From Candidatus Woesearchaeota archaeon (GTDB lineage: Archaea; Nanobdellota; Nanobdellia; Woesearchaeales; GW2011-AR4), in assembly GCA_016188245.1 (NCBI GenBank), contig JACPIE010000040.1, positions 1 through 62,364 of the forward strand: a DNA stretch of 62,364 nt. The letters are read 5' to 3'. Below, in pieces: positions 10,062-16,529 of this stretch. Within the stretch, counting starts at the first letter, position 1, and the number at the start of each line of letters is the position of its first letter. Both the position numbers and the translations under genes were made by a program. The notes under the pieces were generated by a model. The model worked only from the letters and a program-made list of their open reading frames with translations. It was not told the DNA's origin and ran no database searches.

Positions 10062-10589
10062 CTATTCTCCCTCAAACTGAACCAAAGAAAACAGTTTGTA
10101 TCCCCTGTTGTCCATCTTTTCCCTGCCGTGCAAATCCGGCAGTTCTATTATTACTGCACATTCAGCCACTTTTCCTCCAAGCCTTTCAATTAGATTGGCG
10201 GCAGCGACCATTGTGCCGGCAGTTGCAATCAAGTCGTCAACAAGAAGAACCTTTGCGCCATTTGGTATGGCATCAGCATGAATTTCAACTGTTGCCCTGC
10301 CGTATTCCAATTCGTAGCTTTCTTTTTCTGTTTTTGACGGCAGCTTTCCCTCTTTCCTTATTGGAATGAAGCCGCTGTGCAGCCTGTTGGCGAGAGCACC
10401 GCCTATGATGAAGCCCCTGCTTTCAATTCCGGCAACAATGTCGATTGGCACATCTTTGTATCTTTCATAAAGCCTGTCAATCACATAATTGAAGGCATTG
10501 GCATCCTTCAGCAGGGTAGTGATATCCCTGAACATAACGCCGTGCTTCGGCCAGTGCGGAATTGTCCTTATGGTGGATTTTAGGTCCAT
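10062..10589 (-). CDS. apt: Adenine phosphoribosyltransferase
   Basis: FRDITTLL, GIESRGF, RKEGKLP, YELEYG, LVDDLIAT. Confidence 0.96.
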   Translation of the reverse strand: MDLKSTIRTIPHWPKHGVMFRDITTLLKDANAFNYVIDRLYERYKDVPIDIVAGIESRGFIIGGALANRLHSGFIPIRKEGKLPSKTEKESYELEYGRATVEIHADAIPNGAKVLLVDDLIATAGTMVAAANLIERLGGKVAECAVIIELPDLHGREKMDNRGYKLFSLVQFEGE

Positions 10590-10630
10590 GGTTTAACAGA
10601 ATTTGAAGTGGTATTTATAATTTTTATTAA

Positions 10631-11011
10631 TTAAGGCTCTTCTCTAGGGATATCGAGATTGTCAAAATCCTTATCGTAGCTTAAAATAATGCTGCAGCCA
10701 TTGATTAAGGCGCATGAGTAATGAACTGCATCAAAAATGCTGAGCCTCAGCCTGTTTACCTTTTTTAATGCCTCAAACACCAAGTTTATATCCGTGTCAG
10801 CAATGCGGATATTCGATTTCAACAGCCCTTTAATGGATTTTTGAGCTATTTCCTTGCTGCCTGTTTCCTTTTCAATTATAAAAAATGCCTCTATCAGGTT
10901 AAATGTATCCGTCAGGCCGCCCTCCATAATCGCAGCCTGGCATTTAATAAGGTGCTCATTATTATAAAATGCGTAAGCCAAAACATTACTGTCTAAGAAT
11001 CTCATCTTCAA
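10631..11011 (-). CDS. PIN-domain (VapC) toxin
   Basis: FLDSNVL...E...IFDAVH...SYDKDFD. Confidence 0.9.
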   Translation of the reverse strand: MKMRFLDSNVLAYAFYNNEHLIKCQAAIMEGGLTDTFNLIEAFFIIEKETGSKEIAQKSIKGLLKSNIRIADTDINLVFEALKKVNRLRLSIFDAVHYSCALINGCSIILSYDKDFDNLDIPREEP

Positions 11012-11225
11012 TCAGTTCATCCATTTGTTTTGCGGTCAGCTTATACTTGGGCCTGATTTTTTGGGCTTCCTTGAACAGCTTGCTCAAATCTTCTTCAATC
11101 GGCTTAACAAGCATATCGTTCCCCCTTTTTATAATCTCCACTTTGCTGCCAACTCGCAAACCAAAGTCTTTCCTGTATTTTGAAGGAATGGTTATCTGCT
11201 GCCCTTTGCTTACAGTAACTATCAT
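10986..11225 (-). CDS. AbrB/MazE-type antitoxin
   Basis: VSKGQQITIPSKYRKDFGL; overlaps the PIN gene. Confidence 0.9.
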   Translation of the reverse strand: MIVTVSKGQQITIPSKYRKDFGLRVGSKVEIIKRGNDMLVKPIEEDLSKLFKEAQKIRPKYKLTAKQMDELIEDEILRQ

Positions 11226-11320
11226 GTTTAATGATTAATTATGCATTAGAAATATATAAATCTTTCGGTTTTAATCTGCCCAAAACAAAATTTTTAAACA
11301 AGACAGCATTATTATTTTCA

Positions 11321-12403
11321 ATGCTCATCAACAACATCAACTACCGCACAGTCTGGATGCAGGACACTTCTGTCTATATGATAAACCAGCAGCTTTTGCC
11401 GCATAAATTTGAGATTTACCGCTCAGAGAATTACATTGAAACTGCAAATGCGATAAAAACAATGATTATAAGGGGGGCTCCGGCAATAGGGGCGGCAGGG
11501 GCTTATGGATTGGCGCAAGGCGCATTGCAGTTTGAAGGCGAGAATTTTGATGATTTTAAGAAGCATATTGGCGAAGCTTATGAAGCTTTGGATTCTGCAA
11601 GGCCCACAGCGAACGATTTGAATTACGCTTTGAATTTTGTAAAATCCAAGATGATTTCCCTTAACATAGCAGACTCAAAAATGAGGGCTTTTGAATTGGC
11701 AAGGGAATATGCCGACTGGAGCGCTGAAGTCTGCAGGCAGATAGGGGAGCACGGAAACAAATTAATTAAAAATAATCAAAATATACTGACGCACTGCAAT
11801 GCAGGCGCTTTGGCTTGTGTGGACTTCGGCACTGCATTGTCGCCGGTAAGGATGGCGCATTACAGCAAAAAAAACGTTTTTGTTTATGTCGACGAGACAA
11901 GGCCCAGAAACCAGGGAAGCTCTTTGACCGCGTGGGAGCTTGCCCAGGAAAAGATACCTCACTCGATAATTGCAGACAATGCAGCCGGGCATTTCATGAA
12001 AAACGGAAAAATAGACTTTGCAATTGTCGGGGCAGACAGGATTGCGATGAACGGCGATGTTGCAAACAAGATAGGAACTTATGAAAAAGCTGTTTTGGCA
12101 AAAGAAAACAGCATTCCATTCTATGTTGCAGCGCCATTGTCCACTTTTGACATCAATTCAAAAACAGGGGATGACATTCCGATAGAAGAAAGAAGCGAGG
12201 ATGAAGTTTTGTACATTTCCGGCATTGATGAGCACAATAAAATAAAAAAAATAAGGATTGCGCCGGCTGAAAGCACTGCGAAAAACCCGGCTTTTGACGT
12301 GACTCCCACAAGATACATAACCAGAATAATAACTGAGAAAGGAGTTATAAAGCCAATCAAAGAAGAGATTGAAAGGTTTGTGAAAATTAATATTTCGAAA
12401 TAG
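11321..12403 (+). CDS. mtnA: 5-methylthio/5-deoxy-ribose-1-phosphate isomerase
   Basis: IRGAPAIG, RPTA, LTHCNAGALA, ETRP, GADRI, NKIGTY, NPAFDVTP; start placed at 11321. Confidence 0.95.
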   Translation: MLINNINYRTVWMQDTSVYMINQQLLPHKFEIYRSENYIETANAIKTMIIRGAPAIGAAGAYGLAQGALQFEGENFDDFKKHIGEAYEALDSARPTANDLNYALNFVKSKMISLNIADSKMRAFELAREYADWSAEVCRQIGEHGNKLIKNNQNILTHCNAGALACVDFGTALSPVRMAHYSKKNVFVYVDETRPRNQGSSLTAWELAQEKIPHSIIADNAAGHFMKNGKIDFAIVGADRIAMNGDVANKIGTYEKAVLAKENSIPFYVAAPLSTFDINSKTGDDIPIEERSEDEVLYISGIDEHNKIKKIRIAPAESTAKNPAFDVTPTRYITRIITEKGVIKPIKEEIERFVKINISK

Positions 12404-14400: not shown

Positions 14401-14627
14401 GCAACGAACTTAACCTTTACTATGATGAAGAAGGAGATTTCTTAGAGTTGAATATAGGGGGTTATACAGAAGGGCATTTTAAAAATTTAGGTGAAGGTTT
14501 CTTTCAGAGAATAGATAAAAAAACGAACAAGATTACTGGGATAGCTATACATGGATTCAGAAAAAGAACGCAAGGATTAAAAGATGTGAAAATGTCCTTA
14601 CCAGTTAAGATTCAGTTATATTCTTAA
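14397..14627 (+). CDS. DUF2283-like putative antitoxin
   Basis: YYDEEGDFLEL...KITGIAI. Confidence 0.75.
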   Translation: MSNELNLYYDEEGDFLELNIGGYTEGHFKNLGEGFFQRIDKKTNKITGIAIHGFRKRTQGLKDVKMSLPVKIQLYS

Positions 14628-14690
14628 ATGGCGCACAAAATAATACTATATTCAATAACCTTTTTATAACTAGTTAAATTCTTTTTTATT

Positions 14691-15716
14691 ATGAAAGTCG
14701 CAGTCTATTACAACAACAAGGATGTCAGGATAGAAGAAAGACCGGTGCCTGAAATCAATGATGATGAAATCCTCATCAAAACAATGGCTTCAGGCATTTG
14801 CGGCACAGATGTACTTGAATGGTACAGGATAAAAAAAGCTCCGATAGTTCTTGGGCATGAGATTGCAGGCATTGTTGACAAAGCAGGAAAAAACGTCAAA
14901 AACTTCAGGATTGGTGACAGGGTTACGGCAACGCACCATGTGCCTTGCATGAAATGCCATTGCTGCTTAAATAATCATCATACGGCTTGCGAGACCCTGC
15001 ACAGGACTAATTTTGAGCCGGGCGGGTTCTCCGAATACATCAGGATACCCAAAATCAATGTTGAGCTTGGAACTTTCAAATTGCCCGATAATGTTTCTTT
15101 TGACGAAGGCACTTTTACAGAGCCGCTCGGAACTGTTGTAAGGGCGCAAAGGCTGGCTAATCTGAAAGAAAAGGACACATTGCTAATTATCGGTGCCGGA
15201 ATTTCCGGATTGATGCATATCAAATCTGCAAAATCAAAAGAAACCAAAAAAATCATTGCAGCCGATATAAGCGAATACAGGCTGGATGCAGCAAAAAGAT
15301 TCGGAGCCGATTATGTTATTAATGCAAAAGAGGAGGTTATTGATAAAATAAAAAGCATTAATGAAAACAGATTGGCAGATATTGTGATAGTATGCACAGG
15401 CGCTATGGCTGCTGCACAGCAAGGACTAAAATGCGTTGATAAAGGCGGCACAATCATGTTCTTTGCAGTGCCTAATCCAAATGAAACATTTGAAATCCCC
15501 ATCAATGATTTCTGGAGAAATGAAGTAAAAATAATGACTTCTTACGGGGCTGCGCCAAATGACCTAAAAGAGTCTTTGGAGCTGATGGCAAGCGGAAAAA
15601 TAAATATGAAAGATATGATAACCCATAAATTGAAATTTGATGAAATACAGAAAGGCTTCAATCTTGTCGCTGAGGCAAAAGACTCGATAAAGGTTATTGT
15701 TGAGGCTAACAGGTAA
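14691..15716 (+). CDS. Zn-dependent medium-chain dehydrogenase (polyol/threonine dehydrogenase-like)
   Basis: GICGTD, GHE, structural Zn C-x2-C-x2-C-x7-C, GAGISG NAD motif. Confidence 0.93.
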   Translation: MKVAVYYNNKDVRIEERPVPEINDDEILIKTMASGICGTDVLEWYRIKKAPIVLGHEIAGIVDKAGKNVKNFRIGDRVTATHHVPCMKCHCCLNNHHTACETLHRTNFEPGGFSEYIRIPKINVELGTFKLPDNVSFDEGTFTEPLGTVVRAQRLANLKEKDTLLIIGAGISGLMHIKSAKSKETKKIIAADISEYRLDAAKRFGADYVINAKEEVIDKIKSINENRLADIVIVCTGAMAAAQQGLKCVDKGGTIMFFAVPNPNETFEIPINDFWRNEVKIMTSYGAAPNDLKESLELMASGKINMKDMITHKLKFDEIQKGFNLVAEAKDSIKVIVEANR

Positions 15717-15719
15717 AAC

Positions 15720-16529
15720 TTAATCTCCGCCAATAACTGCGCTCTTGATGTCTTCACTGCACTGGCAGTCGACATAATTTATTTTTGGAATCGTTGCAAT
15801 TAATAGTTTCTTTACATTCTCTGCGTTCTGCTTCATGGTTTTTAAAACCATCTCTATATTGACGCTTTCCTCACTTTTTCTCCAGCAGTCATAGTCAGTA
15901 CTCATTGCAACGATTGCATAGCATATTCCTGCTTCCCTTGCAAGCACAACTTCTGGCACAGTGCTCATGTTTATTATATCGGCATTCCACTGCCTGAACA
16001 TATTGGATTCTGCTTTTGTCGAGAATCTTGGGCCTTCTATTGTAATCACGGTGCCTTGTTTATGGTGCTCCAGCCCAATCTCCTCAGCTGTTTCAGCCAA
16101 GACAGCCCTTAACCTGCTGCAGAACGGCTCTGCCATGGGAATGTGGCAGACTTTGCCTTCATCATAGAAAGTTGAGTCTCTTTTTGATGTCCTGTCAATG
16201 AACTGGTCGCAAAAAACCAGATGCCCCGGCTTTATTTCCTCCCTTAAGGAGCCGCATGCAGTCGTTGCGATTATATGCGTGCAGCCCTGCTCTTTCAGCG
16301 CCCATATATTTGCGCGGTAATTCACTTTGCTTGGCATTATTGTATGCTTCTTGCCGTGCCTTGCTATGATGACAACATCTATATTGCCTATTTTTCCGGT
16401 GGTCAACGCAGATGACGGCTCCCCGAATCTTGTCTTTACAGAAATGTCTTTCGCATTCTTCAATATTCTTGGATCTTCCAGTCCGCTTCCGCCGATTATG
16501 CCGATTTTTATGATTTTGGAACACCGCAA
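15720..16529 (-). CDS. mtnP: 5'-methylthioadenosine/5'-deoxyadenosine phosphorylase
   Basis: [44 protein letters not shown]; start codon uncertain. Confidence 0.95.

Follow-up and report, generated by a model that had tools for sequence, protein, structure and literature searches.

Five genes at positions 10062-16529 of a 62,364-nucleotide stretch of DNA from a Candidatus Woesearchaeota archaeon (contig JACPIE010000040.1 of assembly GCA_016188245.1; the whole stretch is called the window here) may encode an oxidative, coenzyme A (CoA)-dependent variant of the dihydroxyacetone phosphate (DHAP) shunt, acting on 5'-deoxyadenosine and possibly on 5'-methylthioadenosine. The cluster consists of apt, mtnA, an orthologue of lsrF, a gene for a Zn-dependent medium-chain dehydrogenase/reductase (MDR) and mtnP. 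This reading is the best supported of those weighed here, and the case for it and the case against it are about evenly balanced. The pairing of a dehydrogenase with LsrF is, with high confidence, a real and widespread module that is independent of autoinducer-2 (AI-2). It is also likely that this module serves the salvage of 5'-deoxyadenosine or methylthioadenosine downstream of MtnA, in whichever order its two steps occur. A broader proposal is advanced tentatively, with somewhat less than even confidence. Under this proposal, the pair would be a widespread and unrecognised end of 5'-deoxyadenosine salvage, downstream of MtnA, that turns all five carbons of the sugar into DHAP and acetyl-CoA and also delivers reduced nicotinamide adenine dinucleotide (NADH), enterobacterial AI-2 processing would have taken over its LsrF only later from an older thiolase with a housekeeping role, and archaeal annotations of lsrF as a quorum-sensing gene would be misreadings.

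5'-Deoxyadenosine is a waste product from radical S-adenosylmethionine (SAM) enzymes that is made by nearly every cell and inhibits radical SAM enzymes. To our knowledge, what becomes of it has been worked out only for cases in which MtnA is followed by a class II aldolase (Ald2, DrdA or MtnB). In the route proposed here, MtnP would carry out phosphorolysis of the nucleoside to adenine and 5-deoxyribose-1-phosphate, Apt would recycle the adenine, and MtnA would convert 5-deoxyribose-1-phosphate to 5-deoxyribulose-1-phosphate. The dehydrogenase, of the NAD type, would then oxidise the C4 methyl carbinol to 3-hydroxy-2,4-pentanedione-5-phosphate (P-HPD), which is the known substrate of LsrF. LsrF would form a Schiff base at the ketone beside the phosphate-bearing carbon and pass the acetyl group to CoA, with release of DHAP and acetyl-CoA. 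What we infer in this scheme is which substrate the dehydrogenase takes, in which order the steps run and that CoA is used. The chemistry itself, first put forward in a preliminary description of the window, holds: oxidation of 5-deoxyribulose-1-phosphate at C4 gives the LsrF substrate.

Gene identities in the cluster

The coordinates given for the five genes in the preliminary description were confirmed with a list of open reading frames (ORFs) and two family libraries. Apt, MtnA, LsrF and MtnP each exceed a curated equivalog cut-off, and the dehydrogenase exceeds that of no NCBIfam model. The adenine phosphoribosyltransferase gene apt (10062-10589, minus strand) reaches 261.5 bits with NF002634 (cut-off 170) and 226.7 with TIGR01090 (cut-off 185.85). 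The mtnA gene (11231-12403, plus strand) encodes a 5-methylthioribose-1-phosphate/5-deoxyribose-1-phosphate isomerase that scores 397.4 with TIGR00512 against a cut-off of 279 and stays under the ribose-1,5-bisphosphate isomerase cut-off (222.9 vs 314.1). Its TIGR00512 alignment begins at residue 40 of the ORF, and the real start probably lies about 30 codons inside the annotated frame. A short form of lsrF follows at 13236-14045 on the plus strand (NF006081, 419.5 bits vs 297). The dehydrogenase gene (14691-15716, plus strand), with ADH_N (PF08240) and ADH_zinc_N (PF00107) domains, is convergent with mtnP (15720-16529, minus strand), whose product, a 5'-methylthioadenosine/5'-deoxyadenosine phosphorylase, scores 329.6 with TIGR01694 (cut-off 274.85). 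MtnA and MtnP are the sole members in the genome of the IF-2B and PNP_UDP_1 families, respectively.

In a six-frame search of the genome, the LsrF match reached 423.1 bits with NF006081; none of 14 named control genomes passed the cut-off in this search, for which a PDB search served as the positive control. Against the E. coli LsrF structures 3gkf, 3glc and 4p2v, phmmer gave E values of about 1e-96 with an ungapped alignment over residues 2-256, and identity to the E. coli protein, judged by eye, is about three positions in five. The ADH synthase MJ0400 matched with an E value of 1.1e-40 and the T. tenax fructose-bisphosphate (FBP) aldolase with about 3e-18, and the window protein stays under both ADH synthase cut-offs (NF005556, 205.6 vs 241; TIGR01949, 190.8 vs 299.45). 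In an alignment with six diverse family members, its register taken from the ungapped 3gkf alignment, residues D26, H27, K172, Y174, G195, G196, D220, M221, G222 and R223 do not vary, and their counterparts in the E. coli protein are D57, H58, K203, Y205, G226, G227, D251, M252, G253 and R254, respectively. Asp57, His58, Lys203, Gly226, Gly227, Asp251, Gly253 and Arg254 are named as phosphate-binding or catalytic residues of LsrF in the available portion of Diaz et al. 2009 (PMC2728841), where Asp251 is also noted to be replaced by Ala in ADH synthase and in the FBP aldolase of archaea. The Schiff-base lysine (K172, E. coli Lys203), the general base (D26, Asp57), the LsrF-specific Asp251 (D220) and the phosphate site (H27, G195, G196, G222 and R223) are all kept. 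Judged from its sequence, the window gene is an LsrF orthologue with an intact LsrF-type active site. Identity as an ADH synthase or an FBP aldolase was ruled out by the cut-offs and by Asp at the 251 position. The family is tight, with a handful of full-length 50%-identity representatives among 1.84 billion cluster representatives. An extract of PMC6410053, citing Marques 2014, gives the LsrF reaction as the conversion of P-HPD and CoA to DHAP and acetyl-CoA.

The dehydrogenase, as far as its sequence tells, belongs to the polyol/threonine-dehydrogenase branch of the MDR proteins. Its best NCBIfam match is L-threonine 3-dehydrogenase (Tdh), below the cut-offs of that family (TIGR00692, 205.3 vs 458.35; NF003808, 201.8 vs 380), and its nearest structures are ketose reductase (aligned as 1e3j), Tdh and the sorbitol, xylitol and galactitol-1-phosphate dehydrogenases. 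In an alignment of 65 sequences that includes the window protein (56 of type 1 and nine divergent), the catalytic zinc site C37/H56/E57/E144, with E144 in an EPL motif, is conserved, as are the structural-zinc cysteines C86/C89/C92/C100, the GxGxxG glycines G168/G170/G173 and D192. Further invariant residues are R46, R77, H82, H83, Y285 and H312. The invariant D192 at the end of the second Rossmann strand suggests use of NAD. The Thaumarchaeota-type MDRs, encoded upstream of LsrF, share no more than 32-38% identity with the window protein, yet the conserved residues of the subfamily are common to both. Members of this branch oxidise secondary alcohols; in the case of Tdh and 2,3-butanediol dehydrogenase, the group oxidised is CH3-CH(OH)- adjoining a heteroatom-bearing carbon. 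Oxidation at C4 of 5-deoxyribulose-1-phosphate needs the same local chemistry, which fits the role proposed for the window enzyme. On the strength of this family chemistry, the protein is proposed to act in a Tdh-like manner, outside the Tdh family, as a 5-deoxyribulose-1-phosphate 4-dehydrogenase.

The LsrF-dehydrogenase pair and class II aldolases

The source assembly comprises 1.29 Mb in 41 contigs and is 92.3% complete, so that absences from it are not proof. It contains no PF00596 (class II aldolase) match at E values up to 0.01, no FGGY_N match (LsrK-type kinase), no ABM match (LsrG-type protein) and no RuBisCO_large match (RuBisCO-like protein). The absence of lsrK, lsrG and a class II aldolase that had been noted for the window therefore extends to the whole assembly, in which lsrABCD, mtnC and mtnD were not searched for. 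Since none of these four proteins was found, MtnA is left without a known downstream enzyme and LsrF without a known source of substrate. Pentose-bisphosphate and RuBisCO-like routes were ruled out by the lack of a RuBisCO_large match. The genome encodes ten radical SAM proteins above the cut-off and a triose-phosphate isomerase (TIM) that could use DHAP. A spermidine-synthase-like match is marginal only, and 5'-deoxyadenosine is therefore a surer substrate than methylthioadenosine.

The surroundings of LsrF were surveyed by scanning one genome per species with an LsrF alignment and taking the best 80 of at least 597 candidates. These 80 loci come from Nitrospirota, Deltaproteobacteria/Desulfobacterota, Acidobacteria, Binatia, Omnitrophota, Thermoplasmata, Methanoperedens, Methanosarcinaceae, Thaumarchaeota and others. 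A dehydrogenase gene lies beside or near LsrF in 72 of the 80. In 63 loci an MDR homologue is encoded on the strand of LsrF at no more than 1.5 kb from it, downstream in 48 and upstream in 15; without the unpublished locus L078 (genome G073), this becomes 62 of 79. In two more loci, an MDR homologue lies within 2.6 kb. Six loci carry instead a fusion of about 700 residues that joins a class II aldolase domain to a short-chain dehydrogenase/reductase (SDR), and one carries a stand-alone SDR beside LsrF. The LsrF-linked fusions pass NF006194 or NF006196 and fall below the rhamnulose model TIGR02632. Around the pair, 139 flanking ORFs in 78 loci include no Pfam family that occurs more than five times, and neither FGGY nor ABM is among the 25 commonest families. 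These variable flanks, free of FGGY and ABM at that level, indicate that the pair is a self-contained module without the context of an lsr operon.

A separate feature of some loci is a Cupin_2 protein encoded divergently just upstream of LsrF (L078, L086, L097, L102 and L132, all from Binatia, Deltaproteobacteria or Thermodesulfobacteriota), often with an adjoining EamA transporter gene.

The relation of LsrF to class II aldolases was followed in 151 genomes of the class Thermoplasmata, which holds locus L128, and in 151 of the phylum Nitrospirota, which holds L067. Among the Thermoplasmata, LsrF is above the cut-off in 90 genomes, PF00596 is found in 65 and MtnA is above the cut-off in 146; the corresponding counts for Nitrospirota are 36, 87 and 145. 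Jointly, eight Thermoplasmata genomes have both LsrF and an aldolase, 83 LsrF alone, 57 an aldolase alone and three neither. LsrF is scored here in 91 genomes at E values of 1e-60 or lower, including a sub-cut-off fragment at a contig end in G240, and without the unpublished G194 the counts are 8, 82, 57 and 3 of 150; no conclusion drawn here depends on G194 or on the likewise unpublished G073. In Nitrospirota, both are found in three genomes, LsrF alone in 33, an aldolase alone in 84 and neither in 31. All three double occurrences are of the fusion type, one adjoining LsrF and one 3 kb away. LsrF and class II aldolases are near-exclusive in these two lineages, in which MtnA is near-universal. 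Fisher tests on the joint tables (p of about 1e-28 and 1e-12) are not used as probabilities, since related genomes are not independent.

The aldolase that takes the place of LsrF is found directly beside MtnA in 21 LsrF-negative Thermoplasmata. Twenty such loci (L141-L160) have the common order MtnA-aldolase-Nop56/58-eIF5A-agmatinase. Searches of these 20 loci by blastp with the window MDR and with the fusion gave no match, and their nine commonest neighbour families include no dehydrogenase. It is thus LsrF, and not the salvage step in general, that the dehydrogenase accompanies. Through the Nop56/58-eIF5A-agmatinase block, the aldolase form of this pathway is also connected with polyamine and hypusine genes.

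Linkage of the pair to the salvage genes is strongest close to the window. Of 20 loci from the same genus, 13 have all five genes in the same order and five are cut by contig ends. Outside the family of the window, 24 families of the order were covered; G037, G045 and G058 carry LsrF, whereas MtnA is present in G040, G045 and G058. The arrangements are MtnP-MDR-LsrF in G037, MDR-LsrF-MtnA in G058 and LsrF-MDR in G045, where MtnA lies on another contig. The G058 operon also holds an aldolase-like gene (MtnA-aldolase-like-LsrF-MDR), with overlapping ORFs at the MtnA/aldolase-like and LsrF/MDR junctions, and G005 has the same order with short intergenic gaps. The retention of the five-gene order in 13 genus loci, together with part-clusters in other families, shows that the clustering is more than chance. 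Farther away, MtnA lies within 4 kb of LsrF in L093, L105 and L111, and the Binatia locus L118 has the order acyl-CoA dehydrogenase, Apt, LsrF, a 99-residue ORF, the fusion and a PNP-family phosphorylase. The preliminary description had made conserved linkage, and co-occurrence of lsrF with mtnA, mtnP and the MDR gene, the tests of its proposal. The pairing with a dehydrogenase stood up across the survey, and linkage to the salvage genes did so within the genus and, in part, in three other families of the order; elsewhere it is rare.

Counter-evidence and competing explanations

Several observations weigh against the oxidative reading. MtnA, MtnP or Apt lies within 10 kb of LsrF in only five of 78 loci outside the genus. 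Co-occurrence of LsrF and MtnA in whole genomes was rejected as evidence: MtnA exceeds its cut-off in 48 of 50 diverse LsrF genomes (47 of 49 without the unpublished G073, with PF00596 absent from 28 of these 49), and it is near-universal with or without LsrF (146/151 and 145/151 in the two lineages above). Even within the genus, loci L046 and L050 lack the MDR gene and MtnP near LsrF despite sequence being present there, and eight of the 80 surveyed loci have no dehydrogenase in sight, four of them with fewer than 400 bases left downstream. The exclusivity of LsrF and aldolase follows clades. In tests of independent pairs on MtnA trees, used as a proxy for species trees, 60 Nitrospirota genomes gave seven changes in each trait and four supported pairs (aldolase opposite in 3.5, same in 0; sign test 0.125), and 100 Thermoplasmata genomes gave eight changes in each trait and three supported pairs (opposite in 1.3, same in 0.1; sign test about 1), so that the direction is consistent and the tests, at four and three pairs, are underpowered. 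No CoA_binding_2 domain was found in the genome of the window, which leaves no evident ADP-forming acetyl-CoA synthetase for making ATP from the acetyl-CoA. The same genome may have a second route to the dione by way of a DXS-like gene on another contig (G000:C1:10438-11265; PF13292, 382 bits over the whole model, in a 644-residue open frame), a gene that is unusual for an archaeon.

The N-terminal swapped segment, which makes up about 30 residues at the start of the E. coli protein, is also missing from the window LsrF, whose ORF sets in at position 32 of the model. At 13191-13235, upstream of the start codon, the sequence still resembles model positions 17-31 of the LsrF profile, across a TAA stop, as it does in several relatives; this stretch may be what is left of an N-terminal extension that has decayed. 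Of 36 Nitrospirota LsrF matches, 15 have the full length of the E. coli protein (model 1-291, 480-507 bits), and the other 21, which begin between model positions 22 and 31, are of the short form; these two length classes suggest at least two origins within the phylum.

A further difficulty is a divergent class II aldolase-like protein of about 194-207 residues, below every NCBIfam cut-off, that is encoded in some LsrF operons, for example at L052:4911-5495 (minus strand), L003:899-1480 (plus) and L111:7365-7988 (plus). In G058 and G005 the gene separates MtnA from LsrF, and in G007, G017 and G040 it follows MtnA; similar genes occur near LsrF in L111, L124, L125 and L139, and such a domain forms the N-terminal half of the fusion in six loci. 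The oxidative model gives these proteins no role, and they fit schemes in which an aldolase acts first. The idea that they are inactive scaffolds was rejected, as the Glu, HxH and His metal-site motifs are kept in 12 of 12 aligned sequences, fusion halves included. They may handle methylthioribulose-1-phosphate in parallel, isomerise the dione or provide an aldolase-first route in those organisms. No relic of such a gene was found between mtnA and lsrF of the window or elsewhere in its genome by tblastn with the aldolase-like proteins of relatives. Since the genome lacks the protein, it is not required there.

The alternative that survives best is a DHAP shunt with a class I aldolase, which is nevertheless unlikely. 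An LsrF-like enzyme would cleave 5-deoxyribulose-1-phosphate or methylthioribulose-1-phosphate to DHAP and (methylthio)acetaldehyde without CoA, and the dehydrogenase would reduce or oxidise the aldehyde. The fold and the Schiff-base lysine are indeed of the class I aldolase type, but the active site is that of LsrF with its Asp251 and not that of FBP aldolase or ADH synthase. Exclusivity with class II aldolases fits this scheme equally well, and the fusions adjoining LsrF, in passing NF006194, belong to the bifunctional rhamnulose-1-phosphate aldolase/dehydrogenase family. In rhamnulose-1-phosphate aldolase/dehydrogenase, the SDR half acts on the aldehyde product. The partners of LsrF, however, are polyol-type MDRs or SDRs; no aldehyde dehydrogenase or iron-containing alcohol dehydrogenase is among the 25 commonest flank families, and the 20 class II aldolase loci have no linked MDR or fusion, so that a dedicated aldehyde reductase seems unneeded. 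Those aldolases have a proton-donor Tyr/Glu without a structurally conserved counterpart in LsrF, according to PMC2728841, and CoA-dependent thiolysis is the sole activity reported for the LsrF type in the corresponding portion of PMC6410053. The proposal that oxidation by the dehydrogenase and thiolysis by LsrF replace the aldolase is favoured by the pairing in 72 of 80 loci, the MDR type, the near-exclusivity and the lack of an MDR in aldolase loci; the order of the steps is its less certain part, aldol cleavage followed by reduction of the aldehyde being the other possible order.

Somewhat more doubtful is a pair that oxidises and then thiolyses another ketose phosphate, with the proximity of mtnA, mtnP and apt being secondary. 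Candidates are 6-deoxyhexulose-1-phosphates, which would give lactoyl-CoA, and nucleoside-derived ribulose-1-phosphate, which would give glycolyl-CoA. This explanation draws on the 73 of 78 loci outside the genus that have no salvage gene within 10 kb, on the variable flanks and the non-discriminating presence of MtnA, and on the kinship of the fusion partner with rhamnulose-1-phosphate enzymes. It has to contend with the repeated presence of salvage genes next to the pair, in Woesearchaeota relatives, Binatia, Thermoplasmata and Anaerolineaceae, when about one of 78 loci would be expected by chance (a rough estimate for two genes, 20-kb windows and 2-3 Mb genomes), and with the 21 genomes in which the class II aldolase that LsrF excludes adjoins MtnA. 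The genome of the window, moreover, has no FGGY kinase match, other sugar-kinase families not having been searched for, and has MtnA as its sole IF-2B isomerase.

An improbable third explanation derives the dione from 1-deoxy-D-xylulose-5-phosphate (DXP). The MDR would oxidise C4 of DXP and LsrF would cleave the product, so that DXS, MDR, LsrF and TIM would form a bypass from pyruvate to acetyl-CoA. On chemical grounds, C4 oxidation of DXP should yield the same dione, and the DXS-like gene (PF13292, 382 bits) is present in the genome of the window. The pair, however, clusters with mtnA, mtnP and apt, with dxs on another contig. In addition, DXS exceeds the TIGR00204 cut-off in none of the 151 Thermoplasmata, yet LsrF is present in 90, and DXP therefore cannot be a general source. 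Quorum sensing, in which LsrF would process phosphorylated AI-2 as in E. coli, can be set aside as very improbable: the window protein is an orthologue of E. coli LsrF, and the available part of PMC11442133 (2024, on ammonia-oxidising archaea) counts lsrF among the genes for AI-2 processing, but no FGGY or ABM protein was found in the genome or among the 25 commonest flank families of the 78 loci, and the constant partner is a dehydrogenase, for which the Lsr pathway has no use.

Inserts, neighbouring genes and known systems

The toxin-antitoxin and orphan inserts reported between the cluster genes were found again as a VapBC pair, an orphan ORF and a PBECR2 module. Between apt and mtnA lie genes for a PIN toxin (10631-11011, minus strand; PF01850, 1.3e-16) and an AbrB/MazE-type antitoxin (10986-11225, minus; TIGR01439 AbrB, PF04014 MazE_antitoxin), a VapBC-type pair at 10631-11225 that is an insert outside the pathway. 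The same holds for the orphan ORF of 140 residues between mtnA and lsrF (12674-13096, minus), which has no Pfam or NCBIfam match. Between lsrF and the MDR gene, a PBECR2 nuclease-like ORF (14104-14400, plus; PF18810, 7.1e-08) is followed by a 76-residue ORF (14397-14627, plus) with no significant family match and one chance-level Pfam match (E 0.077); together they are probably a toxin-type module, likewise outside the pathway. In the relatives L034 and L036, the inserts are absent and the five genes are packed into about 4.4 kb. The Apt-MtnA gap is about 40-80 bases in such relatives, where the VapBC pair would not fit, the mtnA-lsrF gap is about 50 bases in L034 and L036, which lack the orphan ORF, and the lsrF-MDR gap is about 45 bases in L034, L036 and L048, which lack the PBECR2 module. 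The same spacers hold inserts of other sizes in other members of the genus. An 86-residue ORF at 13113-13373 (minus strand), overlapping the 5' end of lsrF, was rejected as spurious, its apparent conservation in tblastn searches of relatives being lsrF antisense.

On the apt side, the cluster is flanked by genes for a Fic-domain protein (6722-7624), an HD-domain protein (7621-8199), a CxxCxxCC protein (8324-8851) and DnaJ (8838-9956). Beyond mtnP lie an orphan ORF of 149 residues (16542-16991), a ZPR1 zinc-finger homologue (17044-17598), a 263-residue ORF without a family (17710-18501) and a SepF-like protein (18562-19002). The ZPR1 and SepF-like genes stay beside mtnP throughout the genus.

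The preliminary description had considered the role given to LsrF to be new. In agreement with this, the open-access literature, which does not take in subscription journals, supplements or Marques 2014, yielded no description that joins LsrF to 5'-deoxyadenosine, 5-deoxyribose, 5-deoxyribulose or MtnA. In that literature, no oxidative route is apparent from the titles of papers naming 5-deoxyribulose, no P-HPD was found outside AI-2 contexts, and neither "thiolase" nor "CoA-dependent" occurs in the salvage papers searched. The available text of PMC11442133 reports lsrF candidates in almost all ammonia-oxidising archaeal genomes of that study, and no archaeal reading of lsrF other than the quorum-sensing one given there was found in the literature searched. 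Of organisms that have mtnP and mtnA alone, PMC8102628 says that they "must employ another pathway". If the oxidative route proved true, it would supply the missing salvage step for large parts of Thermoplasmata, Nitrospirota, the Woesearchaeota relatives and others, and salvage would yield acetyl-CoA and NADH instead of an aldehyde. LsrF would gain an AI-2-independent role, and quorum-sensing readings of archaeal genomes, such as that in the part of PMC11442133 cited above, would be corrected.

Among known systems, the DHAP shunt of R. rubrum and extraintestinal E. coli (MtnP or MtnN and MtnK, MtnA, Ald2) is alike in its first two steps, its substrates and its product DHAP, as outlined in the accessible parts of PMC8102628 and PMC6079011. 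The DrdK-DrdI-DrdA pathway for 5-deoxyribose in Bacillus thuringiensis, with a class II aldolase as its last enzyme, is grouped with it. The window differs in that no class II aldolase was found in its genome and a dehydrogenase and LsrF stand in its place, and the two-carbon product would be acetyl-CoA with NADH rather than acetaldehyde.

The two-step logic of the pair has a parallel in Tdh-Kbl, where an MDR oxidises a methyl carbinol and 2-amino-3-ketobutyrate CoA ligase then yields acetyl-CoA with CoA. Tdh is also the best-scoring named family for the window MDR. The cleaving enzyme of the window, however, is a Schiff-base TIM barrel and not a pyridoxal phosphate enzyme, and the substrate would be a sugar phosphate. 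The closest paralogous families of LsrF, with the same fold, are ADH synthase (AroA', MJ0400) and the archaeal class IA fructose-bisphosphate aldolase, and both have Ala where the window protein has Asp. The rhamnulose-1-phosphate aldolase/short-chain dehydrogenase (TIGR02632, PRK08324) shares its two-domain architecture with the partner of LsrF at six of the 80 loci, whereas the window has an MDR and no aldolase domain.

The Lsr pathway of E. coli and Salmonella (LsrACDB, LsrK, LsrG, LsrF) has the same last enzyme and, if the oxidative model is right, the same last substrate and products. Unlike that pathway, the system of the window has no kinase or isomerase of this kind in its genome and no transporter context, LsrACDB and LsrR not having been searched for. 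Its dione would come from oxidation of a deoxy-ketose phosphate, not from phosphorylation and isomerisation of 4,5-dihydroxy-2,3-pentanedione (DPD), and its LsrF is short, without the N-terminal swapped segment of the E. coli protein. The system of the window resembles the DHAP shunt in its first two steps and the Lsr pathway in its last, and it is a member of neither.

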